This document shows, piece after piece, positions 6,249-64,000 of a stretch of DNA of 64,000 nucleotides. The position numbers and the translations under genes are program-made. The DNA is from an uncultured Nitrospiraceae bacterium (lineage in GTDB: Bacteria; Nitrospirota; Thermodesulfovibrionia; Thermodesulfovibrionales; SM23-35), in NCBI GenBank assembly GCA_963727775.1, contig CAVSHB010000003.1, forward strand, positions 526,002 through 590,001. Reading direction: 5' to 3'. The notes under the pieces are model-generated. The model was not told the origin of the DNA and did no database searches. It was given only the letters and a program-made list of their open reading frames with translations. Each line of letters begins with the position of its first letter. The first letter of the stretch is position 1.

Positions 6249-6375
6249 ATTACAAACCTCTACAAATATCTATATTTATTCTATAGAAAACCGAGCATAA
6301 AAAGAAGCAACTCAAAAAATCGCTTGAGACATCTGTATAGACACTTGGTTAAAATCGTTCACTGAAGAATCCTGC

Positions 6376-6437
6376 AAGTCCTTGAAAAATATGGTACCCC
6401 CTGCAGGAATTGAACCTGCGACACCAGGTTTAGGAAA
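6376..6437. repeat. att direct repeat (62 bp, includes the 3' 46 nt of tRNA-Arg)
   Basis: Identical to 11982-12043; identity ends at the anticodon loop. Confidence 0.93.
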
Positions 6438-10733: not shown

Positions 10734-10900
10734 ATGGCTAACAAGTTACTTACATATAAAGACGTTGCTGAAAGATGGCAATTGCCTGTAAATACTCTTC
10801 GTAATTGGGTAATGAAAAAAAGCTTGTGCCTGTAAAGCTTGGTAGTCTTGTCAGGTTTCATGAATCATACATTATTGAACTGGAACAAAAAGGAATTTAA
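10734..10900 (+). pseudogene. Excisionase-like HTH protein, frameshifted in an A7 run (not in ORF track)
   Basis: MANKLLTYKDVAERWQLPVNTLRNWVMKK, then in the shifted frame KLVPVKLGSLVRFHESYIIELEQKGI. One added A at 10815-10821 restores the frame. Confidence 0.75.
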
Positions 10901-10904
10901 ACAA

Positions 10905-12068
10905 ATGGGTATTTTCAAGAAATGGAATAAATCAGATAATCGTGAAGTCTACTATATTGACTACTACGATGAAAATGGTATTCGTCAAAGAGAATGCACC
11001 AGGTCGAGTTCTCATACCTTTGCAAAAGAACTCTTAACAAGAAGAAAAGATGAAGTAGGACAAAGAAAGAAGCTGCCTGAAAGATATACACCGAAAATTA
11101 AATTCACAGATTTTGTTGATAATGACTATCTCCCGATCCATGCCAAGGGCTCTAAGTATGAAGCCAATATTAAGGGTATCTGTAAAAAGTTAAAAAACTA
11201 TTTTGGTGATAATTTCCTGCATGAGATCAATTCCCGTATGGTGGAGATATACAAAAAAGAGCGCATGGTTAAGCGTGCAGACAATACTGTCAATAATGAA
11301 CTCAACACCTTAAGCGGTATTTTTACTAAGGCAATCGAATGGGGAAAGGCTCTAATAAATCCTGTGCATAAGGTTAAGCGGTTCAGGATCAAAGAGAGAA
11401 AGAGGATTTTGGATCATCATGAGCAAGAGGCGTTGATCATTGCAAGCGGTCAAGAGAAGAAGGCTCCATACCTGCAAAACATGGTTATTTTTGATTTATA
11501 TACCGGCCTGAGAAAAGAAGAACTTTTAAATGTGAAATGGTCTGACGTGGATTTTGAGAATAAACAGATACATGTACGGGCCGACATTGCCAAATACAAC
11601 AAAGATCGTTATATAGACTTAACAATCCAGGCTTTGACCGTTCTAAGGTCATTACCTAGAAGGCGTGAATATGTCTTTTGTGATAAGGGGGGGAAACCCT
11701 TTAAGAACTTCAGACGGTCTTTTGAATCTGCCGTTACGAGGGCTACATTGAAAGATGTAGTTATCCATGACCTGAGGAGGACATTCGGGTCTAATTGTGT
11801 CATGGCAGGCGTGTCGTTGGCTACAGTTCAAAAATGGATGGGTCATGCATCCATAAACACGACCATAAAGCATTATGGCCATTTAGCACAATCTTTCAGA
11901 AAGGAGGAAGTGAAAAAACTGGAAGGAAGGATGGACACCTGTATGGACACCTGGTTAAAAGACGCTACAGAAAAAGCTTGTAAGTCCTTGAAAAATATGG
12001 TACCCCCTGCAGGAATTGAACCTGCGACACCAGGTTTAGGAAACCTGTGCTCTATCCTACTGAGCTAA
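10905..12068 (+). CDS. Tyrosine integrase of the small element (reads through att into the tRNA antisense)
   Basis: TGLRKEE, HDLRRTFG, MGHAS..TIKHY motifs. Confidence 0.93.
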   Translation: MGIFKKWNKSDNREVYYIDYYDENGIRQRECTRSSSHTFAKELLTRRKDEVGQRKKLPERYTPKIKFTDFVDNDYLPIHAKGSKYEANIKGICKKLKNYFGDNFLHEINSRMVEIYKKERMVKRADNTVNNELNTLSGIFTKAIEWGKALINPVHKVKRFRIKERKRILDHHEQEALIIASGQEKKAPYLQNMVIFDLYTGLRKEELLNVKWSDVDFENKQIHVRADIAKYNKDRYIDLTIQALTVLRSLPRRREYVFCDKGGKPFKNFRRSFESAVTRATLKDVVIHDLRRTFGSNCVMAGVSLATVQKWMGHASINTTIKHYGHLAQSFRKEEVKKLEGRMDTCMDTWLKDATEKACKSLKNMVPPAGIEPATPGLGNLCSILLS

Positions 12069-12074
12069 GGGGGC
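11998..12074 (-). tRNA. tRNA-Arg (anticodon CCT)
   Basis: 77-nt cloverleaf: acceptor GCCCCCT/AGGGGGT, anticodon arm CAGGT-TTCCTAA-ACCTG, T-loop TTCAATT, encoded CCA. Confidence 0.96.
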
Positions 12075-12135
12075 ACGCGGGTTTACACGTTATTATACAT
12101 CAAAACGTGACAAAAACGTGATAACCCGGCAGACA

Positions 12136-13227
12136 CTATGCCCTATTCCGTCTGGCCTTACTTTTATCCTTTTTCTTATCCAAGACCGTCACGCTATCCC
12201 TGAGCGATTCAGGGCAATGATGTGCGTATCTCTGTGTCGTCGATATGTCTTTATGGCCCAAAAGCTTTGAGATTTTGAGAAGATCAACCCCAGCCTGTGC
12301 CAGTCTTGAAGCAAAGGTATGCCTAAGATCGTGAAAACGACAGTGAGCGATTCCGGACTCCTTAACGGCCCTCCTAAACGCCCTCTTAAGGGCATCGGCC
12401 TTGATCATGCCACTGTTCACATCGCAAAAAACACAACCTGACATGTTGCCTGCTTGAGCACGCCTTTTCAGGAGGTCATAGGCGGTCTTGTTAAGGGGGA
12501 TTGTCCTCATATTCGAGGCGTCCGACCCGTTTGATCCGCACCTTTTTGACCTTTGCTTGCGCGTCTTCTCCCTGCCAGTAGTAAGAGTTTTACCGAAAAG
12601 ATCGACTTGAGACCATTCCAACTTCAAAATCTCTTCCTGGCTGAGGCCAGTATTAAGGTCGAGCACGATAATGTCGGGAAGCTGATCGTTGAGTTTACCT
12701 TGGGCTGAACAGAGAAGCTTTTCCTCTTCTTCCCTTGTTAACCACCTGTCTATTTCGCCCGCTTTGAGCATGATTCTCTTTGCGTCTTTAATCGGGTTTG
12801 TCCTTGACCACTTTACGGTGTTAAAGGCGTGGCTCAGCAATCTCACCTCATTTAAGATGGTCGAGTCTGCTGCCCCCTCGTCCAGTCGCTTCTTTTTGTA
12901 GTCATCGACTAAGTCCGATGTTATGCTGCTCAGCGGCAATCCCGAAAAAAAGCTATTAAGATGAGGAAGAGCATCTTTCTTGCGCTCCAGAGTGGATGAT
13001 TTGTCCACAATCTTAGAAAAATATACCTCCATCATCTCATCAAAAGTTCTCCTTCTGGCTTCTTCGATATCGAACCACTTTCCTTCGATTATCAGCGTCT
13101 CGACCTTGGCCAGAATTTTCCTCGCCAGTTTTTCGTCAGTGGTTTCAGTGGAGCGGCGATACTGTTGACCGTTAACAGCAAAACGCATCCACCAGACCTT
13201 ACTGTCTTTACGCCTGTACAGTCCCAT
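12136..13227 (-). CDS. Tyrosine integrase of the right-hand island
   Basis: HDLRHTFAS and LGHKDISTTQRY motifs. Box I reads TGLSQEE (Ser where Arg is usual). AGGAGG RBS before the ATG at 13227. Confidence 0.9.
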   Translation of the reverse strand: MGLYRRKDSKVWWMRFAVNGQQYRRSTETTDEKLARKILAKVETLIIEGKWFDIEEARRRTFDEMMEVYFSKIVDKSSTLERKKDALPHLNSFFSGLPLSSITSDLVDDYKKKRLDEGAADSTILNEVRLLSHAFNTVKWSRTNPIKDAKRIMLKAGEIDRWLTREEEEKLLCSAQGKLNDQLPDIIVLDLNTGLSQEEILKLEWSQVDLFGKTLTTGREKTRKQRSKRCGSNGSDASNMRTIPLNKTAYDLLKRRAQAGNMSGCVFCDVNSGMIKADALKRAFRRAVKESGIAHCRFHDLRHTFASRLAQAGVDLLKISKLLGHKDISTTQRYAHHCPESLRDSVTVLDKKKDKSKARRNRA

Positions 13228-13318
13228 AACTATAATCCTCCTTTCCTGCCCTCCGTGGGGCATAGGGACCAACAAGGCTTGAAAACACCATGTTAAATTA
13301 TACAAGAAATCAAGCCCG

Positions 13319-27256: not shown

Positions 27257-27747
27257 ATTTCTCCGGGTCATCATATCCGAATAGCCAGTGATCTTTTGGC
27301 ACTCTTGCGTATTCCGGTTATTCCGTCGGGTCGTTTCAAACGGGCCGCTCGTACAGGGGCGTTCTGAATTGACCAGGATTATTTGATTACGACGCTCTCA
27401 TACGTGCAATATTATTGCGCCCTCCACCTGAAATCCCTCAGTGCGGACTTCTCGCCGAACGTGTTGAATTCCGAAAATAACTACCATCCTTTAGAGTTCA
27501 GTCCGTTTCTCGCTATCTTCCTGTAATTGACGGTGAAACCCTTAAAATAATGTAGACTTCATTAATCTCCATACCCCGCCGTCTCTGCGGCGGGCACCTT
27601 ACGTCGTCGGGGTGCAGGGCGTCGGAGCGAAGCGCAGACCCTTGCCGACCCACGGGGTCTAATACCCCGTGGTGTCGTGCCGAGCAAAGCGAGGTTTAGT
27701 TATTCAGAAATCAATACCGAGTAAATTGCGGTAAAAGAAAGAGTCGA

Positions 27748-35569: not shown

Positions 35570-35788
35570 GCTCGTGATTAAGTCTCTGAAGAAATATTAA
35601 AAGATTTCAATAGAGCAGGTTCTGATTTCGGGTACCCGAACCCCACTCACTCAAAGCAGGAGAGGGAGAGACTGGACAAAGTCCTCCCCTCCAAATATTA
35701 TTCCGGCCATATTGACTAAATTGAATTATATGAGAAAATTATATCATGAGGGGCTAATTATTAGGAATGTTGATCTTCATTTATTTAT

Positions 35789-35972
35789 AAGCAAAACCAC
35801 TGACAATGTCAGTGGTGGGGCGTGGGGGCGAAGGCTCCACACCTTTGGCGAACCGACGAGGTCGGTGAGCCTAATATGGAATTAATGACAACTCCTTAAT
35901 CAGGCGAGGCGGAGGACATTGTCCGTAGTCTCGCCGCACTGCAAGCCACCGACAAGGTCGGTGGTAGTTGAC
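35789..35972 (+). mobile_element. 184-bp non-autonomous IS200/IS605-type element, copy 1
   Basis: Subterminal hairpins ACCACTGAC-AAT-GTCAGTGGT and CCACCGAC-AAG-GTCGGTGG; ends GGTAGTTGAC; follows TTTAT; identical to 46378-46561. Confidence 0.8.
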
Positions 35973-36012
35973 TACTTATGACACTCAAAAGGAAAAATAA
36001 AGGAGGTATCAA

Positions 36013-46271: not shown

Positions 46272-46377
46272 GGCTTTCTTTACATTGCTTTATCATACCT
46301 TAACAAGCGAGCTTTCGGTTAAGAGTGTAGTACCACTCCTTTGTTATCGATATCGAGATTAACATAAATTTATTTAT

Positions 46378-46561
46378 AAGCAAAACCACTGACAATGTCA
46401 GTGGTGGGGCGTGGGGGCGAAGGCTCCACACCTTTGGCGAACCGACGAGGTCGGTGAGCCTAATATGGAATTAATGACAACTCCTTAATCAGGCGAGGCG
46501 GAGGACATTGTCCGTAGTCTCGCCGCACTGCAAGCCACCGACAAGGTCGGTGGTAGTTGAC
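46378..46561 (+). mobile_element. 184-bp non-autonomous IS200/IS605-type element, copy 2
   Basis: Identical to 35789-35972; same ATTTATTTAT upstream, different downstream flank. Confidence 0.8.
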
Positions 46562-46939
46562 TAGGCACATCTGCGTGTCTGTGGAGATTATAAAGAGTGG
46601 CTGAGCGTCAGTCAATAAGAAGTAGCGATTTCCGCGCACGGTCTGTCAGCCCTATTTCTTAAATGACTGTGTCCGTTGGAGGATGTTAAGAGAATAGATC
46701 AAAAAAGCGCAACTTCTTCACTAATGATTTCAGCATGTACTCCTCACAATAATCTAGGTGCTTCGAGATTTCAAGTGAGCAAGTCATTTCTGTGACGAAC
46801 ACCTTACAATCCGCACTTTTCAAAAGCTTCCCAATAGTGTAAGTTATTATCGATATCTACTATAGGAGGATGGCATGCAGATAACTCGCTCACGGGAAAG
46901 TAGGGCTCTGTTCCTGACATGTCTTAAGGTGCTGAAATA

Positions 46940-52379: not shown

Positions 52380-53115
52380 ATTAAGTCCATTTTTGGAGTT
52401 ATCATATCCAAATATTATACCACCGTGACGATGGGGGCAGGAGATAATTGATAGTATGCTGGTATGCCGCATTCTTATTACTGTCGCAGAATTGTAGCAG
52501 ATTTTAGCTCTTTAGGCAGAAAATGCCGAAAGGACAGAAAATACCGAACGATAATGTCTTCTTTGAAATCAATACGTTATACCCAAATCGTTGCCAGTGG
52601 CCCTTCTGTCAAAATTGCCCGCTTCGCCCTTTCAAGGCGGCAACTACACACCATGGTGACTGTCACTACCTGGAGCGAGAACCTTTAGTGGTGCAGAAAG
52701 TACCTACATGCGGATACCAAGTTGACGATCACTATGGGCAAGGGACTTGTCTACGGGTCAGTGCTGGTTGACGATTGGCCTCCTTATGTGTACAGATGGC
52801 TTCGATGGAGAAAAGCGGGCTGGTGTGTCATGCCCACAAAAGAGTGGAATGCTAAGGGAATGCATCGACAAGTATTACGCTATGATGGAGCGAATCTCGA
52901 TGAGGTTGGGAAAGGCTTTTGAAAAGAAGGAATGAAGTTCTGAGGGATAGAGAAATTAGCCGCGTAGTGTTGCAGCCAACGCAGATTTTCAACTACTCTT
53001 GTGCTAAAGTCACATGTCAGTTTGCGGAACATCGTTGTATATTAATGAAAAGCCTGTTAAGAACAATGTATCATATGAATCATGCCCAGTAATTTAAATG
53101 CATTCAGAGTAAATA

Positions 53116-53364
53116 TTGAAGACATCAAGAACATCTCGAGTATTCGTCAGTTCCACCTTCAGTGATCTAAAGGGAAAGTGTAACGCACTTCAGGAAAGGG
53201 TATCCCCAAAGCTGCGGGAATTGTGTGAGCAGCATGGATGCCGATTCCAAGCTGTAGATCTGCGTTGGGGGGTGAGCCGGGAAACAGCCCTTGACCAGCG
53301 AGTCAATCGGATGTGCCTAGAGGAAGTTGAACGTTGCCAAAGGCTTTCTCCCCAACAAATATGA
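53116..53364 (+). pseudogene. DUF4062-like N-terminal fragment
   Basis: RVFVSSTFSDL..VDLRWGV..CLEEVERC, truncated. Confidence 0.72.
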
Positions 53365-53678
53365 ACCTAATAGACCATTTAAAAACAACAGGTGGTGCAG
53401 GAGAAAATATACACCTATTTATGGATCAATTCTACAAATATTTTGGTAGAGACCATAGGGTAATCCTGCACCATAAAATGGGGATAAAAGCAGTGGGTAA
53501 AATATTTGGGACAGCGGCTATGCCAATTGCTGAGAACCATATACTTGACGACTGGCAAGGGGGTATGCCCAACGGACCGCATGACAAGAATTTTTACAGG
53601 TTAGCGTGGGCGTATGATTTACATATGTTTATGGATGCCGTAAAATTTGCCGATGAATTTCTAAAGATTTGGGGATAA
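53361..53678 (+). CDS. Small His-rich hypothetical protein (DUF6915-like)
   Basis: HLFMD..HRVILHH..GI..ENHILDD pattern. Confidence 0.55.
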   Translation: MNLIDHLKTTGGAGENIHLFMDQFYKYFGRDHRVILHHKMGIKAVGKIFGTAAMPIAENHILDDWQGGMPNGPHDKNFYRLAWAYDLHMFMDAVKFADEFLKIWG

Positions 53679-54000
53679 GAATATATCTAAACGAAAATAT
53701 GAATAGAAAAACGTAAGAAGAATGTTCAAGTCTAAAAAGAAAGACAGATATACGGCTTTGGGCCACATCTGACAAGGAATATTTGTTAGACAAGGTTGAC
53801 ATAGAAACTGAACATACCTATTCATACAATTCGTCTCGTTAAAATTCAAATTCCTCAAACATTAAGACCTCCAATCAAATGAATGAATTGTGAGTGCATC
53901 CTCATTATGCAGTGCATTTCCTATAGGCATTGGCCACTATAAACCAAAAACTTTCCATTAATCAAACAAGACTGCAGTCAAAAAGTTATATAATCATACA

Positions 54001-54828
54001 GTGAAAATACTCTTTGTCACCGACTTGCATGGATCTCAGTGGAAATATGACCGACTGTTTGATGTTGCAACGGGGTTAGGGGTGCAGATCGTTGTCAATG
54101 CCGGCGATATGCTTCCCAAGGAAGGGGCTCTGTTACAACAAGATGATTTTATCACTTCATTTCTTGACCTATTCTTTGAGAAGTTTAATAATGCCGGAAT
54201 CTACTACCTCTGCTATCTTGGAAACGATGATCTTATGATCTTCGACCAGTTATTCGAAAAGGTTTGTGAGAAATACCGTTTTGTTGTCTCTCTTGCCCAG
54301 CAAAAATGTGACATCAGCGGTTACGAGTTTATAGGTATGAACTGGGTTGTCGATTATCCTTTTCGGCTTAAGGACAGATGCCGGGTGGATACCGACGACT
54401 ACGTATTCCAAAAACAACTGGGGACAGGCCTGCTGTCAACTCGAGAGGGATTTCAGGAGATTAAAGACTGGCCTGCCTACGCTAGATCACTGCCTACTCT
54501 CCATGATGAGTTGATCAATCTGGTGCGCCCCCAAAATATGTATAAAGCTATATATGTGATTCACATGCCACCCGCCAAACTGGGGCTGGATAAATGTTAT
54601 AGCGGGGTAGAAGCTGGATCGACAGCCGTTTATGACTTTATCAGAAAGAATCAGCCTCTTATGGCTTTACATGGACATATTCACGAGTCCCCTCAAATGA
54701 CTAACAAATGGTTCGCAGAACTTGGTAGAACAATCTGCATACAACCAGGTCAGCTTGATGATTTTACGTACGTGACGATTGATCTGCATACCATGCATTT
54801 TGAAAGACACAGTGAACGACACCGATAA
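54001..54828 (+). CDS. Calcineurin-like metallophosphoesterase
   Basis: DLHG, GD, GNDD, HMPP and GHIHE motifs. Confidence 0.9.
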   Translation: MKILFVTDLHGSQWKYDRLFDVATGLGVQIVVNAGDMLPKEGALLQQDDFITSFLDLFFEKFNNAGIYYLCYLGNDDLMIFDQLFEKVCEKYRFVVSLAQQKCDISGYEFIGMNWVVDYPFRLKDRCRVDTDDYVFQKQLGTGLLSTREGFQEIKDWPAYARSLPTLHDELINLVRPQNMYKAIYVIHMPPAKLGLDKCYSGVEAGSTAVYDFIRKNQPLMALHGHIHESPQMTNKWFAELGRTICIQPGQLDDFTYVTIDLHTMHFERHSERHR

Positions 54829-55094
54829 AAAAGGCATTATTCTTTTTAGAACATTGATAATCCCTATGCATTCTAAAGCTCCTCAAATCCTTAGAAGCGT
54901 TTTTAAGGTGCGTCCGCAATTCTCCAATTCATATATTACCGGGTGAAAGACGTCGTTGCCGTTAATGGGTCTTTCCAACGGTCTCAATTTCCTCCCTTGA
55001 AATGTGGAGCTGCACATTTCACTCGGAATATTCTCCATTTGTCTTATTTTGTTTCATTTTCTTAATGATATTTCTGAACGGTGGCATCTGCTGT

Positions 55095-56336
55095 TTACGA
55101 TTTCTTTTGCGGGCCGTCCAGACCAAGCTCTCCGCTGAGCACCTTAGCGACGAACCGATCACCCGAGGTCTGCGATGCAGCCAGTTTGCGTATGCGCTCG
55201 AATGTCTCACGCCCGTTACCGGCGTTTGCGGCAGCTTCCATGGTATAAAGGTAGGCATCTCTGATATCCGCAGAAGTAATTTCATAGCCATACCCCTCAC
55301 ACAACCATCTAAGCGCAGCTACCCCGGCTTCGACAGCAAAGTCCGGATGCGTAGCGGCCGCCTTCCTTGCGGCCCGTGTCAGCGTCCTGGGGTCACAGGG
55401 CGTCTTGTTGGCCAGTCCGATTGACTCGGCATACAGACCAGCGGATTTCGCAGAAGCAAACCACTTACCTTCTTCTCCGGGTGTGCTTTCAACGAGATCG
55501 TGCAGGATCTCACTGGCAGTCTTATGAGGATATTTCTTTGTAATGGCCCGAAAGGTCGCCAGATGCGATGTGCCTCGATTAGCGTCAAGTGAATACCGGG
55601 CATATGCTTCATCGTACATGCCACTCGAAAGAAGAATTGCCTCACAGGCCAGTGCAATTGCGCTCGAGGGCTCGTTGATTCCGTGGGAATCCTCTGCGTA
55701 ACGGATCGCCTCTGCATTTCTGCCCATAGCGCTCAGAGCCTTCACACCCCACTTCCTGTAATACCAGTTCTTGTGCGGCAAAAGTTCGAGAAGGGAGAGG
55801 GTTTCCTCATTTCGCCCGGCCTTGACGAGGGCGCTCAGACAGGCGGTCGTACCTTTGAAATAACCATGATGCCCAGAAGAAGGATTCCATGCCATCCGGA
55901 CCACTTTTATAAATGAATCCGCCCATTGTGACGCGCGGTCAGCGGTTGCACAGAGTTCTCCCCAATATTCGGGCAACAGCTCGATATATGGGATATCGTC
56001 TGCCTCGACCGCCTGCCAGAGGCGCTCCAGCCACCTGTCTCGCACAGAACTATCTGCCGGAGCACCGGCTATAATGGGCGCAAGTATCTCAATGGCATTG
56101 TTCACAGCCGATCCTATCGCACCCGATGAACTATCGACGTGGGCCAATGCAGGGGATAACCTTTCCAGAAACAACACAGCGCCTTCAGCAGCCAGGACCG
56201 ACTCTTTACGTACTGTTTTCTTTATCTCTGCCACAGCCTCTTTTACGCGTGCCAGGGCCGGCTGCGAGCGCCATCCGAAGGCATTCCGACGAAACCGCGC
56301 TACAAAATTCCATTTGTGAGTAGTTGATGAAGCCAT
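55095..56336 (-). CDS. Hypothetical all-helical protein
   Basis: Long Ala-rich ORF divergent from the XPB operon; no motif assigned. Confidence 0.7.
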   Translation of the reverse strand: MASSTTHKWNFVARFRRNAFGWRSQPALARVKEAVAEIKKTVRKESVLAAEGAVLFLERLSPALAHVDSSSGAIGSAVNNAIEILAPIIAGAPADSSVRDRWLERLWQAVEADDIPYIELLPEYWGELCATADRASQWADSFIKVVRMAWNPSSGHHGYFKGTTACLSALVKAGRNEETLSLLELLPHKNWYYRKWGVKALSAMGRNAEAIRYAEDSHGINEPSSAIALACEAILLSSGMYDEAYARYSLDANRGTSHLATFRAITKKYPHKTASEILHDLVESTPGEEGKWFASAKSAGLYAESIGLANKTPCDPRTLTRAARKAAATHPDFAVEAGVAALRWLCEGYGYEITSADIRDAYLYTMEAAANAGNGRETFERIRKLAASQTSGDRFVAKVLSGELGLDGPQKKS

Positions 56337-56850
56337 TTTATTTCCATCTTTCGTATTTAAGTTGAAATGAAACACACATTCGATATATTGCCTTGTTTTA
56401 TAAGGCTAATTGTGAGCAAGCTTTTGCAATACCGTATCAATAGAAGCTTTGCAGGCTTTTTTGCCCAGTATTTATCCATCTTAAAGGAGTCTTGGGATGT
56501 TAGTCGTTCCCAAATCCTTAGTCCACGCGGTTTTACTAATTTCAGTGCTCATAACCATTCGAAATTAAATATTAATAATGACCTTAATAGATTCTTTTCA
56601 ACTTTATTGCGAATGAATCTTTTATTTCTATTCTAACCAATTGACACCGTTGATGTCACACGGCATTCATCCCCTCAAGCGAGCTGTAAAAGGGGACAGG
56701 CTGGTTTTTCAAAGTTCCCGCACGATTGCTTCAAGAATGCCCTTGCCGGGCTGCCATAAGTCCCTTCCTAAATCAAAGGATCATGGATGCACTAATTGCA
56801 TTGGGCATGTATTTAGCGATACGAGGGTTTCTTAATGTAAAATAGATGCC

Positions 56851-58827
56851 ATGGAATTTCCTGTTCCCAGAACATATCGGGATTTATTGTGTACATTGGA
56901 TAAGGACGCCCTTTTATCCTTTATGAGGGGCTTTTTCAAGGGCGATCTTGCTACTGCCGACCTTTTTACAAACCGGATAAACGAAGATAACCTGATGAAC
57001 AGCTTCTTAGACAAATTTTCCTCTGCCTCATATATCAAAGGCATTCCGGATCAGATATCAAAGGATGAATTAAAGGCGTTAAGGGAGATTATCAGGAAAG
57101 GCGGTTTCCTGCGGCCTGGCGATAAACACTTCCCTGAAAAGAGCACAGTCGATGGCCTTGTAGAAAAAAAGCTTGCCTTCAGGAGCGATGGCGCTGACGG
57201 TCGCGGGGTTGCCGTGCCGCTCGAAATCTGCCTCGGGTTGCCATTTGATAAAAATGAGGAATACCGTTCACTCATGAGGGCGATGAACCGATATTCCTCT
57301 GACATAATCAAGCTCATGGCGCCTCATCTGGGGATTCCCCAATACAACAAGCTGCATAAGATCAGGCTTGCCGCAGTCGTTTATAAAAGGATTATCGAAA
57401 ACTACTCCCAGTATATCGGGTCGCTCACCGATCTGCAGAAAAAGATCATCAGGCATATATTCAGGCGCGGCGGCTTTGTTTCGAATGGAAACCTCGATGT
57501 ATGGGCCAAGGCCAACGGTATGAAAGAATCCGGAGGCCAGAGGAGTTGGTACGGAGGGGATTACTTTCTTGATTATATGAGCACAGCGTACAGAAGAAAA
57601 AAAGAAGATTTGTCCGACCTTGAAAAGGCGTTGTTGCACCCTGTCTTGTCCGGGGTAGTCTGCGTCTCATACAGAGAGACTTATGATAGCATATGGCATT
57701 ATTTCATCCCTGAAGAGGTATTCCCATTGCTGGCCGGGGACTTTTTCAGGGAGATGGATGAAAAGAGGGAAGTCGCAAGAAAAACAATGCGCGCTGCGGC
57801 CCCCGATGTTTTTGTCTCCTATTCCGGCAGAGTAGCAGAGGACCTTATCAAGGTCCAGATAGCTGCTGCATGCGGTCTGGTCGGATTTGTGAAGAACAAG
57901 CCCGAATTTAAGAAACGTTCGATATCCGACATTGCCGGGCTGTTGAATTCTGCTGAATGTTACGTGGAAAATCTGTTTAGGTTGTTAGGTTTTCACCCCA
58001 GCGGGATGAATATCATAAACTACAGTAGTTTTGATCTGCTCAAGTCATATCTATTCAAGTACGAATATGTCGTTTCTCTCCTTCCCATTTTGCAGCCTTT
58101 TCAGGGATGGGTGCATATGGATGGCCTCATTAAATATCTTCTCAATCATAGAGACCTCTACCGCTTTTCAGCATCACTTTCTGAAAACGTTATCGAGTCC
58201 GCGCTGAAAGACCTCGGCATGCTCGGCCTTTTGGATATTTCCCCTGACGGCAAGAGAGCGCAGGTCGCGCCCTTGTTGTCAAAGATGTTCGACTCTCCTC
58301 ACTTCAAATCCATAGGGGTAATTAAAGGAGACTCCCGGCCGCTTATAGTGCAGCCGAACCTTGAGCTGCTGATACCTATGAATACGGAAATAAAGGCGCT
58401 CAAGAAGCTCTCCGAATTCTCCGACCTGATCGTGCTTGACAAGATGCTCCACTTTGCCTTGTCGAAAAAAAGTCTTATGCGAGGACTGGATCTGGGATGG
58501 GATATAAAAAAGGTTATCACCTTCCTTTCGTCGATTTCCTCAAAGGATGTCCCCAAGACCGTTGAAAATTTTGTCGAGACGTGCTTAAACAAACGGGGCG
58601 AGGCGGTTGTGATGCCATCTTCGACCCTCATACATTGCAAGGGGCTCGGGCTGAAGTCAAAGATATTATCTATGCGGGGATTGAAGGCGGAAGGACTGGA
58701 GGGAGCTGATGACTATCTCTATATTTCCGCCCAGTCTCCTGGCGAAGTGCTCAGGATATTGAAAAAGCACGGGATCTTTGCCGAGCTGGCAGAAGAAGGA
58801 AAACAGGCAGACAGGAGTCGTAAATGA
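56851..58827 (+). CDS. Helicase-associated protein with C-terminal Helicase_C_3 (XPB-NTD/p52-like) domain
   Basis: PLIVQPNLELL..LSEFSD..LSKKSL.RGL..G..VITFL..S..VPKTV pattern. Confidence 0.75.
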   Translation: MEFPVPRTYRDLLCTLDKDALLSFMRGFFKGDLATADLFTNRINEDNLMNSFLDKFSSASYIKGIPDQISKDELKALREIIRKGGFLRPGDKHFPEKSTVDGLVEKKLAFRSDGADGRGVAVPLEICLGLPFDKNEEYRSLMRAMNRYSSDIIKLMAPHLGIPQYNKLHKIRLAAVVYKRIIENYSQYIGSLTDLQKKIIRHIFRRGGFVSNGNLDVWAKANGMKESGGQRSWYGGDYFLDYMSTAYRRKKEDLSDLEKALLHPVLSGVVCVSYRETYDSIWHYFIPEEVFPLLAGDFFREMDEKREVARKTMRAAAPDVFVSYSGRVAEDLIKVQIAAACGLVGFVKNKPEFKKRSISDIAGLLNSAECYVENLFRLLGFHPSGMNIINYSSFDLLKSYLFKYEYVVSLLPILQPFQGWVHMDGLIKYLLNHRDLYRFSASLSENVIESALKDLGMLGLLDISPDGKRAQVAPLLSKMFDSPHFKSIGVIKGDSRPLIVQPNLELLIPMNTEIKALKKLSEFSDLIVLDKMLHFALSKKSLMRGLDLGWDIKKVITFLSSISSKDVPKTVENFVETCLNKRGEAVVMPSSTLIHCKGLGLKSKILSMRGLKAEGLEGADDYLYISAQSPGEVLRILKKHGIFAELAEEGKQADRSRK

Positions 58828-60668
58828 AATATAATGATAAGCCTTCGTTTTTGGCAGACGCGGTAGAAGCATATTCCGCTGACGAGGTAAGGAAGTTTTC
58901 GAAACTAGCAGTAGATATTATTTCCACGGAGAAGGGCCCCTTCTGGGTCAGCGGGCATATCGAGCAGGTATCATCGCAGAGGAAATCGGACCTAGCGCCG
59001 ATGCTCGTCAAGCTCATGAAACACGCTGAAGCATCAGCGGCACTATACAATCATCTTGCCGAACCGGAGAAGGCCGCGGTGCAGGAGGCGGTCTCGGACA
59101 TTCATGGGGTACTCGACATCGCCGTATTCAGGGCAAAATACGGGAAGAGTCCTTATATGTCAAAAAAAGAGAAAGAATCGCGAAGCCTCCTGCCGTTATT
59201 TATTTACTACGGAGGCATCATTCCGCCGGATCTGAAGGAAGTCTTAAAACATTTTGTGCCGAAGCCTCCCATGGCAGAACCGTCTTTTGAGGAGAATCCG
59301 CAGGATAAAATAGTTGTTGGAGATGAGGAAACACCTCTTGTCAGGCATCTTACAGAGCCTGCTGCGCTCCATGATCTTTCCGTACTGCTTCACCTTGCCG
59401 GAAACAGCCGGTTGAGCGCAAGCAGCGCAACGGGATATATCACAGGAGCAGGCGCCTCCACAGTCCGTGAAGTCCTGCTGCATGGAGATTATTATCCCGA
59501 AGGTACTGAGGCGGAGGATAAATATGATGTGCAGATTGGGGAGCAGGGAATCCGTCCCTTTGCATGGTGTATGATCCTGCAGGCGGGCAAGCTCGCAAAG
59601 GTAGAGGGCGGCAAACTGCGGCTCACAAAAAAGGGACATGAGGCCCTCAACAAGGCGCCTCATACGGTATTAAAGGAATTATGGGAAAGCTGGCGTAGCA
59701 ATAAACTCCTGCACGAGATGAACAGGATAGATATCATAAAAGGTCAAAAATCCAAGGGAAATCCTCTGTATGCGGCTGAAGAGTGCAGAGAAGCGCTTGA
59801 GATTGCATTGTCTTATCTTACGATAGGCCAATGGATAGAGACAGATGAATTTTTCCGTTACTTGATAGCCCGGGGGCTCAGGTTCACTGTTGCCCGCGAC
59901 CCGTGGAAACTTTATATTTCCGATAGAGAGCATGGTAGCCTCGGTTACAACCATATTACCTGGAACCACATCGAAGGACGTTTTGGCAGGGCATTTCTCC
60001 TTGAATACGGCGCGACAATGGGTATTATCGACGTTGCCTTAGTGCCCCCTTGGGGCGCGGCCGATGATATCGGGAATCTCTGGGGAGCCGACGCATACTC
60101 CTGCCTGAGCAGATACGACGGGCTTATGTATCTGCGGTTGACTCCTCTGGGAACGTGGATACTTGGCAAAGCCGATACTTATTCGCCCGCTGTGTCTGAG
60201 AGTATTCACATCTTCACCATCCTCCCAAACCTCGAAATTGCGATGACATCTCACATGGCGGCCCCGGATAGGCTGTTCCTTGACCGGATAGCCGAACGAA
60301 AATCGGAGAGGGTATGGGAACTCTCGCGAAGCAAGATCGTTCAGTCGCTGGAAGCTAATACGAAATTCGGGGTGATAAAGGATTTTCTTCTCAGCCGAAG
60401 CGGAGAAAGAGAAATCCCCCAGACTGTGGAGGTCTTCCTGAACGACATTAAAGAACGTTCGGAAAAATTGAGTGACCGTGGCATGGGAAGGATCATAGAA
60501 TGCGCCGACGCGGATACCGCTATGCTTATGGCAAATGATCCTGATCTGAAGAAATTATGCCTGCCTGCCGGGGACCGTTCTCTGGTTGTCCCTTCAAAGA
60601 ACGAATCGGCCTTCAGAACCGCGCTGAGGAAGAAAGGGTATGTTGTGATAACGGAGAAAACAAGATGA
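58824..60668 (+). CDS. Second helicase-associated protein with C-terminal Helicase_C_3 domain
   Basis: ILPNLEI..FLDRIAE..WELSRSKI..IKDFL..S..IPQTV pattern; ATGA overlap with the previous gene. Confidence 0.75.
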   Translation: MKYNDKPSFLADAVEAYSADEVRKFSKLAVDIISTEKGPFWVSGHIEQVSSQRKSDLAPMLVKLMKHAEASAALYNHLAEPEKAAVQEAVSDIHGVLDIAVFRAKYGKSPYMSKKEKESRSLLPLFIYYGGIIPPDLKEVLKHFVPKPPMAEPSFEENPQDKIVVGDEETPLVRHLTEPAALHDLSVLLHLAGNSRLSASSATGYITGAGASTVREVLLHGDYYPEGTEAEDKYDVQIGEQGIRPFAWCMILQAGKLAKVEGGKLRLTKKGHEALNKAPHTVLKELWESWRSNKLLHEMNRIDIIKGQKSKGNPLYAAEECREALEIALSYLTIGQWIETDEFFRYLIARGLRFTVARDPWKLYISDREHGSLGYNHITWNHIEGRFGRAFLLEYGATMGIIDVALVPPWGAADDIGNLWGADAYSCLSRYDGLMYLRLTPLGTWILGKADTYSPAVSESIHIFTILPNLEIAMTSHMAAPDRLFLDRIAERKSERVWELSRSKIVQSLEANTKFGVIKDFLLSRSGEREIPQTVEVFLNDIKERSEKLSDRGMGRIIECADADTAMLMANDPDLKKLCLPAGDRSLVVPSKNESAFRTALRKKGYVVITEKTR

Positions 60669-61123
60669 AAAGGAAATCTATGGAAGACAGCGATGATCAA
60701 GTGGAGATAATGCCGGAAGATTTTTATTCTGATGCCGGGGAGAAGATAAAATTCAATTGGTTTTGCTACGAGTTATCATTGGGATTGTACGATGCGCTTA
60801 CAAGAAAAGTAGGGAAAAAGTTTGCAAAGTTTAATATTGGGGATAGGGCAATCACCGACTTTTCAATTTATTTTGCCAAATCGATGAAAAGTATTATCCT
60901 CGAAAAGCTTTCCGGCAAAATTAAGACTGTTTATTTCTCCCATAAAACGATTGAATCATTTTTCCCGAAGATCAGTGACAGAATGGTAAATGCCGTTCTG
61001 GATGTTATTGCAGAAGTTTGGGACGACCAACTCGGCACTTGTGAAGTCTGCCCTACTCGCTGCATCAGTGAAAAAGAGGTTTATTGTACGATGTTCGATG
61101 ACGGTCCCTATGGGAAGGATTGA
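60665..61123 (+). CDS. Small protein with C-terminal CxxCxxxC-x7-C cluster
   Basis: CEVCPTRCISEKEVYC; overlaps both neighbouring genes. Confidence 0.75.
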   Translation: MKRKSMEDSDDQVEIMPEDFYSDAGEKIKFNWFCYELSLGLYDALTRKVGKKFAKFNIGDRAITDFSIYFAKSMKSIILEKLSGKIKTVYFSHKTIESFFPKISDRMVNAVLDVIAEVWDDQLGTCEVCPTRCISEKEVYCTMFDDGPYGKD

Positions 61124-62835
61124 ATGCAAAGACAGCAATGAACTATAACCCTCGGAATCCCCTTATAATCCAGTCCGACATGACCATGCTGCTCGAAGTG
61201 GATTCGCCTCTTTATGAGGAGGTGAGAGACGCCATTGCCCCGTTTGCAGAGATCATAAAAAGCCCCGAGCACGTCCACACGTATCGCATCAACCCTATAT
61301 CCCTCTGGAATGCCGCTTCTTCAGGCGTCAACCCTGATGACGTCAGGGGAAGGCTCATCCGTTACAGCAGGTACGAGGTCCCTCATAACCTCCTTGTTGA
61401 AATCAGGGATATAATGGGCAGGTTCGGGAAGGTAAGGATCGAAGGGCATGATGAAGCCATGCTTAAGCTCGTCGCTGAAGACCCGCTCCTGATGGAACAG
61501 CTTTATCATACGGAGCATGTGAGAAATCTCCTTTTTGAAAGGATCGGCCCTGAGTCTGCCGTTTTTACTTCCGTCAATCGCGGCCTCATAAAACAGGCAT
61601 TGATCAAGGCAGGCTATCCGGCGGTAGATATTGCCGGTTATTCTGAGGGTCTTCCCCTCGACATTTCCCTGAGAGAAAACGACTTATTCAAAATCAGACC
61701 ATATCAAGTCATGGCGCGTGACGCATTTTACAAAGGCGGTTCTGCCCTTGGCGGCAACGGGGTAGTGGTCCTGCCGTGCGGGGCGGGAAAAACGGTCGTG
61801 GGCATAACTGTTATGGAGATGATCAAATCTCATTCACTGATACTCACCACCGGAATCACAGCGGTCAGACAGTGGAAGAGGGAACTTGTCGATAAGACAG
61901 GCATAAGTCCTGAGGACATTGGTGAGTATAGCGGCGAGGTGAAAGAGATCCGCCCGGTGACTCTAACAACATACCAGATATTGACCCACAGGAAAAGCCG
62001 TGAGCATGATTTCACACATTTCCGTGCTGTAAATGATCATCCGTGGGGGTTATTGATCTATGACGAAGTACACCTTCTGCCAGCCCAGGTTTTCCGGTTT
62101 ACCGCTTCTTTGCAAGCGATAAGGAGGCTCGGCCTGACCGCAACCCTTGTAAGAGAGGACGGTAGAGAGGGCAATGTCTTCTCCCTGATCGGCCCGAAGT
62201 GCTATGATGTTCCCTGGAAAGTGATAGAGAAACAGGGATGGATCGCAGAGGCTGAATGTTTTGAAATAAGGGTAGGGATTACAGGAGACACAAGATTCCA
62301 TTACGCATCCTCTGAAAAAAGACAGCGGTTTCGCATAGCGGCCGAGAATCCGGCGAAGACCCCGGTGATCCATAGGCTCATCTCAATGCATAAAGGCGAC
62401 CGGGTATTGATAATAGGACAATATCTCGAACAGTTGCAGGGAATTGCGGAAAGTATTGGCGCACCGATAATCACCGGGAAAACACCACAGGCCGAGCGTG
62501 AAGCCCTTTATCATCGGTTCAGGGAGGGCAACCTGTCCACGCTTGTGGTCTCCTCGGTCGCCAATTTCGCCATAGACCTGCCTGACGCGTCAGTCGCTGT
62601 CCAAGTATCGGGTAGATTCGGATCACGTCAGGAAGAGGCACAGAGACTCGGAAGGATATTGAGACCGAAATCAGACGGAAGGGGAGCAAGGTTTTATACC
62701 CTTGTGTCGAGGGACACGGATGAACAGGAGTTCGCTCTGAAAAGACAGCTCTTCCTCACGGAACAAGGGTACAGTTACACAATATTTTCCGAGGATGAAA
62801 TCGGTTCTTATCTGAAGGCTGGCCTGGACGTGTAA
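61120..62835 (+). CDS. xpb: XPB/Ssl2/Rad25-family DNA helicase
   Basis: NPLIIQSD..KSPEHVHTY N-terminal domain; LPCGAGKT, DEVH, LTATLVREDG and QRLGRILRPK motifs. Confidence 0.94.
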   Translation: MNAKTAMNYNPRNPLIIQSDMTMLLEVDSPLYEEVRDAIAPFAEIIKSPEHVHTYRINPISLWNAASSGVNPDDVRGRLIRYSRYEVPHNLLVEIRDIMGRFGKVRIEGHDEAMLKLVAEDPLLMEQLYHTEHVRNLLFERIGPESAVFTSVNRGLIKQALIKAGYPAVDIAGYSEGLPLDISLRENDLFKIRPYQVMARDAFYKGGSALGGNGVVVLPCGAGKTVVGITVMEMIKSHSLILTTGITAVRQWKRELVDKTGISPEDIGEYSGEVKEIRPVTLTTYQILTHRKSREHDFTHFRAVNDHPWGLLIYDEVHLLPAQVFRFTASLQAIRRLGLTATLVREDGREGNVFSLIGPKCYDVPWKVIEKQGWIAEAECFEIRVGITGDTRFHYASSEKRQRFRIAAENPAKTPVIHRLISMHKGDRVLIIGQYLEQLQGIAESIGAPIITGKTPQAEREALYHRFREGNLSTLVVSSVANFAIDLPDASVAVQVSGRFGSRQEEAQRLGRILRPKSDGRGARFYTLVSRDTDEQEFALKRQLFLTEQGYSYTIFSEDEIGSYLKAGLDV

Positions 62836-63210
62836 CTCACTGCCAGGCAACGGACCGGACTCTTGTTTTTGCCGTCTGCTCTCTGCGCTTTTTTTCAGCA
62901 GGGTGGGCATATTTCTCTTCACAAAAGAACTTGCCAGTGTAAAGTTCTCCGTTATGCAACCATACGTAACCCTGGTATTCTATGATGATCGGCGTGATCA
63001 ATGATGACTTTCTTGAGGATGGAGTCATTATCGGTATTTTGGAAATATATTTTATTTTCGCTATACCGCAACAGCAGATTGAAGCTTAACCGAAACAAAC
63101 ACAGCCTGCCGTTGTTGAGCGGCTGAGTTCGATGAAAAGGAGTCCTGATTCCCAAAATGGGTGCCGCGTGTGCCCCTCTTTTCTTATACTTGTTCAGTTG
63201 ATAATATCAC

Positions 63211-63239
63211 TTGACAGAGGTTAGCATAATTGCTAACAT
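63211..63239 (+). promoter_or_regulatory. higBA promoter with overlapping palindromic operator
   Basis: TTGACA-N17-TAACAT; palindrome GTTAGCA-TAAT-TGCTAAC. Confidence 0.75.
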
Positions 63240-63246
63240 TAAGAAC

Positions 63247-63577
63247 ATGAAATATACTATCGAGTATTTCCATGCGCGCGTCAAAGACGAGATCGAGAGC
63301 TGGCCCGATGGTATATTGGCTGATTATGCGCGGTTGGTGGAACTTTTGATGGAGTTCGGACCGACTCTGCGCATGCCGCATTCGCGTGCTATGGGCGGAT
63401 CAGGTACTTTTGAACTGCGGCCACGCAGCCGTGAAGGTATCGGACGCGCTTTATACTGTTATATTGACGGTCAACGCATTTTGATACTTCACGCTTTTGT
63501 AAAGAAAACGCAGGAGAATCCGGAGAAAAGAATTACGCCTTGCCCGGATAAGAATGAAGGAGGTACGAAATGGCTGA
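63247..63577 (+). pseudogene. higB: HigB/RelE (Gp49-like) toxin with a +1 indel near the 3' end
   Basis: LRMPHSRAMG..FELR..LHAFVKKTQ. Removing one A at 63526-63529 gives ELRLARIRMKEV. Confidence 0.8.
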
Positions 63578-63927
63578 TTTAAAATACAAACCCGTTTCGC
63601 ATGATCATGAGGCTTTCCTAAAAAAGCCTTGAAACGGAAAGAGTTCAGTAAAGCGTACGAGGATATGGAAGAAGAGTACCGTCTTACCCGAGAGATGCTT
63701 GCCGCTCGTTCCAAGTTCGGTCTCACTCAGGAAGCCGTTGCAGAGTTGATGGGGACGACAAAAAGTGCGGTATCGCGCTTAGAAGCTGCGGGCAAGCATG
63801 CTCCGTCTCTGACTACGCTCAAAAAGTACGCGCGCGCCGTCGGCTGTGGCTTGGAAGTAAGTTGGTTCCCAACGCTCGCCTGACCAAGCGCTCAACACGG
63901 GCCGCCAAAAAGCAGGCGGCCGGTTAG
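63570..63927 (+). pseudogene. higA: HigA XRE antitoxin with indels
   Basis: GLTQEAVAELMGTTKSAVSRLE HTH; frameshift in A6 at 63620-63625 and probably another near 63859. Confidence 0.78.
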
Positions 63928-63940
63928 CTTCGCGTTGCGT
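63878..63940 (+). other. attC-like site after higBA
   Basis: GCCTGAC-CAAGCGCTCAAC-ACGGGCCGCC..GGCGGCCG-GTTAGCTT-CGC-GTTGCGT imperfect palindrome. Confidence 0.6.
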
Positions 63941-64000
63941 TTTCGGTTAAGCTTCAATCTGCAGGTGCGGTGGAGCGAAAAAAGGAAAGATATTTTCGGT

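Follow-up and report, generated by a model that had tools for sequence, protein, structure and literature searches.

The window analysed here, a 64,000-nucleotide stretch of contig CAVSHB010000003.1 from an uncultured Nitrospiraceae bacterium (assembly GCA_963727775.1), carries four same-strand open reading frames, A, B, C and D, at positions 56851..62835, where a preliminary description of this DNA had placed them and where the list of open reading frames gives them. The best reading of the whole is that D encodes an XPB motor, A its core partner, B a second and dispensable partner, and C a passenger; we put it somewhat above an even chance. The locus resembles one lobe of TFIIH, that of XPB–p52(–p8), without being a TFIIH itself. 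Regarded as a variant of the XPB–p52 kind, it likely has two co-inherited full-length partners, and a metal-binding subunit is unlikely. The locus offers two p52-like candidate partners for one XPB, and natural variants without the second partner exist (genomes G139, G188 and G208), which makes TFIIH-like regulation of a bacterial motor, and the effect of the second partner, directly testable. The most exotic idea of the first reading, an iron–sulphur (Fe-S) subunit, is not borne out.

The sequence of D is that of an intact bacterial XPB, a predicted DNA motor. It scores 823.5 bits against NF045503, the family of the bacterial DNA repair helicase XPB, for which the curated cut-off is 610, and it carries the Pfam domains PF13625 (residues 15-142, 115.5 bits), PF04851 and PF16203. 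The N-terminal domain is present, and Walker A, DEVH, RED and motif VI are all intact, so that D ranks as a full member of the bacterial XPB group that includes the Mycobacterium tuberculosis enzyme (PMC3353954). Judged by its distribution, D is an accessory in the host lineage: among 301 genomes of the host's order XPB was found in the host alone, and another order of the phylum has it in three of 64 genomes.

Both large genes turn out to be p52-like, and to a fuller extent than had been claimed for them. PF13625 (Helicase_C_3) is found in A at residues 498-611 (51.6 bits) and in B at residues 470-580, where its 23 bits fall below the 34.2 cut-off and are supported by profile comparison and by fold; the three Helicase_C_3 domains of the preliminary description are therefore all present. 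HHalign relates A to B at 99.75% over 504 profile columns with 14% identity, and on this comparison the two are distant paralogues, A having an N-terminus about 130 residues longer. Among solved structures, the profile of A finds yeast Tfb2 (E 1.6e-4) and the human XPB N-terminus (E 6e-6), and that of B finds only the XPB N-terminus, weakly (E 0.03). In terms of profile homology, each protein ends in a module corresponding to XPB residues ~5-165. That of A (~490-650), which consists of the clutch and a small C-terminal domain, aligns with the N-terminal 165 residues of XPB at 97.9% over 162 columns, and the C-terminal module of B aligns with the XPB N-terminus at 91.7%. Neither A nor B gave a match to the Pfam Tfb2 family (PF03849) at E≤0.1, and matches in two of the 20 A homologues scanned were weak and below the cut-off. 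A possible internal repeat in the N-terminus of A was rejected, its probability being only 28.6%.

The likeness of A to p52 over its full length rests on the HHalign comparison with B, the protein for which a fold was predicted (pLDDT, the predicted local distance difference test, 92.8; 90 sequences). A Foldseek comparison with p52, envisaged in the preliminary description and run for this model, gave 19 matches at E≤1e-3 from TFIIH entries; the best is 8ebs_D (1.9e-8), and p52/Tfb2 chains 8ebt_D, 7o4i_2 and 6trs_A are among the others. A second aligner superposes residues 150-602 of the model on residues 126-456 of 8ebs_D, with Z 15.3 and a root-mean-square deviation (rmsd) of 5.9 for 309 aligned residues. 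The middle domain alone matches 6tru_D with Z 10.5, and residues 459-549 fit the XPB N-terminal domain with Z 12.9 and rmsd 2.1. Residues 545-605 correspond weakly both to the Tfb2 C-terminus (3dgp_A, Z 4.8) and to a chain of the Tfb5 complex (3dom_B, Z 4.5). As modelled, then, B fits p52 over the middle domain, clutch and C-terminal domain, in the p52 order. Residues 1-149 are unaligned to p52 in the full-model comparison; a weak hint of a SAP-like start (E 6e-4) appears in one homologue.

Two features of TFIIH bear on how such partners might work. Passages of one study describe the p52 clutch as homologous to the XPB N-terminal domain, with which it forms a pseudo-symmetric dimer, and the p52 C-terminal module as the binding site for p8 (PMC6422496). 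Passages of another report that p52/p8 activate and cap the XPB ATPase, and that eukaryotic XPB needs the complete core of TFIIH in order to translocate (PMC7708078). The locus shares with the XPB–p52–p8 assembly (Ssl2–Tfb2–Tfb5; PDB 6NMI, 8EBS, 8EBT, 6TRS, 7O4I) an XPB with its N-terminal domain and a partner in which middle domain, clutch and C-terminal domain follow one another in the same order. It differs in having two full-length p52-like paralogues instead of p52 and a small p8, in the low identity to p52 (12%, with the first 150 residues of B unaligned), and in its gene content, since the operon's four genes, which are those examined, include no p8, p34, p44, p62 or XPD. The XPB module here is also accessory and patchy rather than essential, with predicted binding between its proteins.

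Other known systems can be compared with the locus as well. In the archaeal helicase–nuclease XPB–Bax1, XPB is likewise encoded with partner genes, but Bax1 binds the thumb and HD2 regions of XPB (PMC13024598), whereas the partners described here are p52-like and would use the N-terminal domain. The Helicase_C_3–WYL proteins (PMC6789036) resemble A and B in placing PF13625 within a large non-enzymatic protein. The earlier statement that no nuclease or WYL motif is evident is borne out: A, B and C have no matches to such families at E≤0.1 in Pfam, NCBIfam or PADLOC. The literature covered, mostly open-access papers without their supplements, yielded no description of bacterial p52-like XPB partners.

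A is the likely core partner of this XPB lineage, as its linkage in related genomes suggests. PF13625 matches were found in three of 250 other genomes of the phylum, G139, G188 and G208, and in all three an A gene (54-57% identical) lies upstream of XPB. The gap between them is 33 base pairs (bp) in G139; it holds two genes without a name in G208, and in G188 a type III restriction-modification pair, a pRiA4b-ORF3 gene and a small gene. D is 80-81% identical to the XPBs that accompany A and 50-62% identical to those that accompany B alone. In these genomes A stays with XPB, no B was found, and the gap is empty or filled with other cargo. Because that unrelated cargo is coupled in the same way, overlapping the stop of A in G208 and the start of XPB in G188, codon overlap is weak evidence of a complex. 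In unrelated loci, too, the partner–XPB gap repeatedly takes cargo, at L021:7924-15085, L040:1746-2482 and L054:9878-16753, with restriction-modification, toxin-antitoxin and transposase genes; the labels for L040 and L054 come from reading the sequences.

The A–B tandem is likely old, with B lost in one lineage, if equal contig sizes, matching trees and the nested position of the B-less A genes are a guide. When the longest contigs of 21 A rows were compared with those of 119 B rows, five had identical sizes in bp, against a chance mean of 0.18. Four of these matches, in metagenomic records, have a common source and a size that fits (2931, 4047, 17556 and 5849 bp). The four pairs with contigs equal in bp are P0243/P0122 (A 85% and B 85% identical to the window genes), P0396/P0123 (61% and 72%), P0242/P0126 (47% and 52%) and P0244/P0135 (37% and about 41-42%); the identities of the two partners fall in step, from 85/85% to 37/42%. 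The four paired B proteins fall in one clade (95%), and their branching order with the window pair is the same as that of their A mates. The A genes without B form a clade (100%) nested inside the A genes with B. It had at one stage appeared that the tandem was a one-off mosaic, given the lack of A in the B loci described below; that view was revised after the contig-size matches and the trees.

The B family, with 451 homologues found, is by its gene contexts a large one whose members pair with XPB, stand alone or follow A. Contexts were taken from 79 metagenome loci, representing the best 80 of at least 549; several are near-duplicates, and the closest B homologues lie outside the sample. XPB is on the same strand in 41 of the 79, within 300 bp in 38, and on the other strand in two more. 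B itself keeps scores typical of the family in its clutch and C-terminal domain. One further locus (L102:5420-12473) has in a single run XPB, B, a 776-residue SWIM-finger/PF13625 protein and a 353-residue relative of the partners' N-terminal half; from its gene content it is another two-partner XPB locus. A tandem of two full-length B homologues occurs at L050:143-3804, on a contig too short to reveal XPB. B was found in none of 60 genomes of the host's relatives and, in a search of the class, in one of 350 genomes as a distant solo copy (G320). In a search of sequencing runs, no RNA run was among the listed holders, no listed contig piece bridges A–B or B–C, and no join skipping B–C was seen; viral contigs contained no relatives of A, B or C.

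Several of these results count against a joint machine of XPB, A and B. B was not found in G139, G188 or G208, which are 99, 92 and 88% complete, and full-length A was found in none of the 79 B loci, nor in any of the 42 with at least 2.5 kb upstream. Of 38 B loci with both flanks of at least 1.5 kb, 14 have no XPB nearby; among five plasmid copies inspected, two are coupled to XPB and three have none within 7 kb, so that B may have a role independent of the motor. The co-location of A and B is deduced from contigs of equal size. A fifth size match, P0254/P0124, was dropped as a coincidence because the sources differ and the contigs are too long to fit, and 12 further A-like rows, mostly distant or partial, gave no size match with B. 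The trees (a quick IQ-TREE run for A, FastTree for B) were both made without outgroup rooting, and linked genes co-diverge even without interaction. The XPB–A and XPB–B contacts are predictions from homology, and DNA opening does not follow from likeness to p52, because eukaryotic XPB translocates only in the complete core complex.

It is possible, though we consider it doubtful, that only A partners XPB and that B is a hitch-hiking p52-like gene, kept by linkage, whose product acts alone, for instance as a homodimer that binds DNA in defence islands. The persistence of A–XPB without B in three genomes and the unrelated cargo in the A–XPB gap, the type III restriction-modification pair included, would be expected on this view. 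So would the solo B genes on plasmids, which lie near Wadjet, Hachiman, toxin-antitoxin or transfer genes in records outside the set of 35 that match XPB at E≤1e-60, and the clutch and C-terminal scores of solo B proteins, which are close to those of copies adjacent to XPB. Yet A–B pairs seem to endure down to 37/42% identity with matching trees, B homologues sit directly beside XPB in almost half of the sampled loci, and the solo metagenome copies may have an XPB elsewhere in the genome. Co-conservation of the second partner, on which the preliminary description had made its proposal depend, is mixed: B appears to be co-inherited with A in a lineage but was not found in the three A–XPB genomes. 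Of the proposed two-activator machine, the p52-like nature of both partners survives, but their obligate joint use is disfavoured, since A and XPB occur without B and B is often alone with XPB or without it.

Two solo copies stand next to defence systems on conjugative plasmids: one directly upstream of a Wadjet operon in Cupriavidus (L127:6587-15611) and one adjoining Hachiman in Polaromonas (L125:6764-13373). They are candidates for a defence-associated role of B without XPB.

On the favoured reading, with A as core and B as dispensable second partner, the clutch of A would dock on the XPB N-terminal domain of D in a pseudo-symmetric dimer and would set the XPB ATPase rate, by analogy with TFIIH. 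Because one XPB has a single N-terminal domain, A and B must swap on it or be joined in some other way. The simplest joint use would be pairing of A and B through their p8-like tails: the last ~60 residues of B, with their weak likeness to the p52 C-terminal domain as well as to p8, would pair with the C-terminal domain of A and fill the position of p8. Alternatively, B would take turns with A on XPB. In both partners, the helical domains at the N-terminus and in the middle would bring the motor to DNA. A more elaborate arrangement, which seems improbable, is that the two diverged full-length p52 paralogues heterodimerise via their p8-like C-terminal domains and that B, at the place of p8, could bind a second XPB with its free clutch to give a two-motor XPB2-A-B complex. 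If true, XPB2-A-B would be a living model of the origin of p52 and p8 from duplicated copies of the XPB N-terminal module.

The preliminary description had included the product of C as a possible Fe-S or Zn subunit in a single DNA-opening machine of all four products, with A and B as two activators. Some features agree with that proposal, which we regard as very improbable. The gene order is compact, with two ATGA overlaps, and the C-terminal CxxCxxxC-x7-C motif is present as claimed (C126-x2-C129-x3-C133-x7-C141; family consensus CxxCPxRC-x7-C). All 91 aligned homologues keep the first three cysteines, and 90 of them keep the fourth, so that binding of metal by C, a putative function, is plausible. 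C is joined to XPB on contigs of about 92-94% identical relatives in two studies, so that its place there is at least as old as their divergence. Two genomes of the phylum also have a C homologue ~80 bp upstream of a 1,385-residue SNF2 helicase (L110:5501-10282 and L111:326-5020), a loose tie to DNA motors.

The wider distribution of C argues the other way. Its 134 homologues are mostly stand-alone genes of archaea and bacteria. The 18 other genomes with C come from one search (seven), from the phylum (three of 250) and from a set of 301 archaeal genomes (a further eight). Within fetched flanks of <1.5 kb to 8 kb, C lies beside XPB, A or B in none of the 18, and a genome-wide PF13625 match was found in only two of 10 C-bearing genomes checked, on other contigs. 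C is likewise absent from all 79 B loci, and neither A–C nor B–C gave a contig size match in bp. G208 has both C and A–XPB, on different contigs. The G+C content of C is also lower (39.7%, against 47-51% for A, B and D), and its predicted model is all-helical (pLDDT 86.6), in contrast to p8, which has an alpha/beta fold. Since C occurs elsewhere without XPB or the partners in the fetched flanks and lies beside XPB only in close relatives, a machine of four subunits, one of them an Fe-S protein, is unlikely; on these distributions C is likely an unrelated passenger. Such a lack of co-conservation of the small gene is an outcome that the preliminary description had itself named as refuting its proposal.

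Fold comparison gave no clear relative of C. Foldseek gave no match for C at E≤1e-3, to p8- or Bax1-like folds included; the best hit of a wider search (lambda Q, Z 7.4) lies within the background for helical proteins, and the ESM Atlas offered no usable match. Identification of C as p8, Bax1 or a radical-SAM protein, the last a Joint Genome Institute (JGI) label, was rejected, with no family match and, among the folds listed, no match at that threshold. In three loci (L007, L008 and L009) C homologues overlap the start of IS66 transposase genes, and in L009 the homologue lies between a DruA-domain gene and the transposase. C stands alone in archaea of the methanogen group; in three archaeal genomes (L130, L131 and L136) it has a common neighbourhood with the same upstream gene, which suggests a settled housekeeping position there.

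The role of the XPB module is a separate question. Accessory processing of damaged or unusual DNA has, in our estimate, an even chance. That XPB, A and, where present, B serve in defence against phages or plasmids, by sensing or unwinding foreign DNA, is a lesser possibility, compatible with the binding model, and some other role is less probable again. Defence comes into consideration because of the patchy spread of the module and its island neighbours. XPB is rare in both orders searched, the host has a canonical UvrB, restriction genes lie inside the G188 operon, and the locus sits at the end of a region rich in mobile and defence-type genes: the 50 kb upstream contain integrases, transposases, several toxin-antitoxin pairs and STAND NTPase, Schlafen and NERD genes. 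The neighbourhood of defence and toxin-antitoxin genes noted earlier is therefore real. The idea is held back by the lack of an effector domain and of a match to a described defence system: PADLOC 2.0.0 has no model that fits A, B or C, and for D the matches cover helicase stretches only; no nuclease or effector domain was found with Pfam or NCBIfam; and the G139 copy has no defence cargo. Accessory repair genes are, moreover, also carried in islands.

The layout of the genes is given in Table 1. ATGA overlaps join A to B and B to C, as described earlier, but the coupling claimed for C and D is doubtful. It would require D to start at TTG 61120, and the three closest XPB homologues start at a codon matching ATG 61138, 14 bp past the stop of C; an overlap is probably absent at this junction.

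Table 1. Genes of the XPB operon, with positions in the window
Gene	Position	Strand	Product
A	56851..58827	+	658 aa (amino acids), p52/Tfb2-like
B	58824..60668	+	614 aa, p52-like, distant paralogue of A
C	60665..61123	+	152 aa, Cys-rich, family without a name
D	61138..62835	+	XPB; 565 aa from ATG 61138, 571 aa from TTG 61120

A scan of the locus for promoters and terminators gave nothing interpretable. Another contig of the assembly repeats the end of the window (C2:1-11428 corresponds to 52580-64000; 11.4 kb, 99.2% identity), with two differences in the 5,985-bp operon. This copy is, from its position and identity, most likely an overlap of contig ends, and a true duplication of the operon was rejected. 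On C2 the locus is followed downstream by a toxin-antitoxin pair and then by core genes and tRNAs. An antitoxin-like gene after 63582 has 119 residues on C2 and is broken in the window copy, probably through a contig-end error.

Divergent from the operon, on the minus strand at 55095-56375, lies a gene for a 426-residue protein with no Pfam, NCBIfam or PADLOC match; no counterpart was found in the other loci of XPB or B. Farther upstream, two converging integrase genes (10839-13305) surround a tRNA-Arg on the minus strand (about 11998-12074), the end of which is repeated at 6328-6437 (89%); ParB and Toprim/ATPase genes follow, and the region has the make-up of an integrated element. Identical 196-bp direct repeats at 35779-35974 and 46368-46563 flank 10.4 kb that hold MsrA, Schlafen, IrrE-like/DUF4411 and 986-residue methyltransferase-like genes. 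A ~150-bp element at 27558-27704, with about 19 more copies in the genome, most of them 94-99% identical, is possibly a miniature transposable element.

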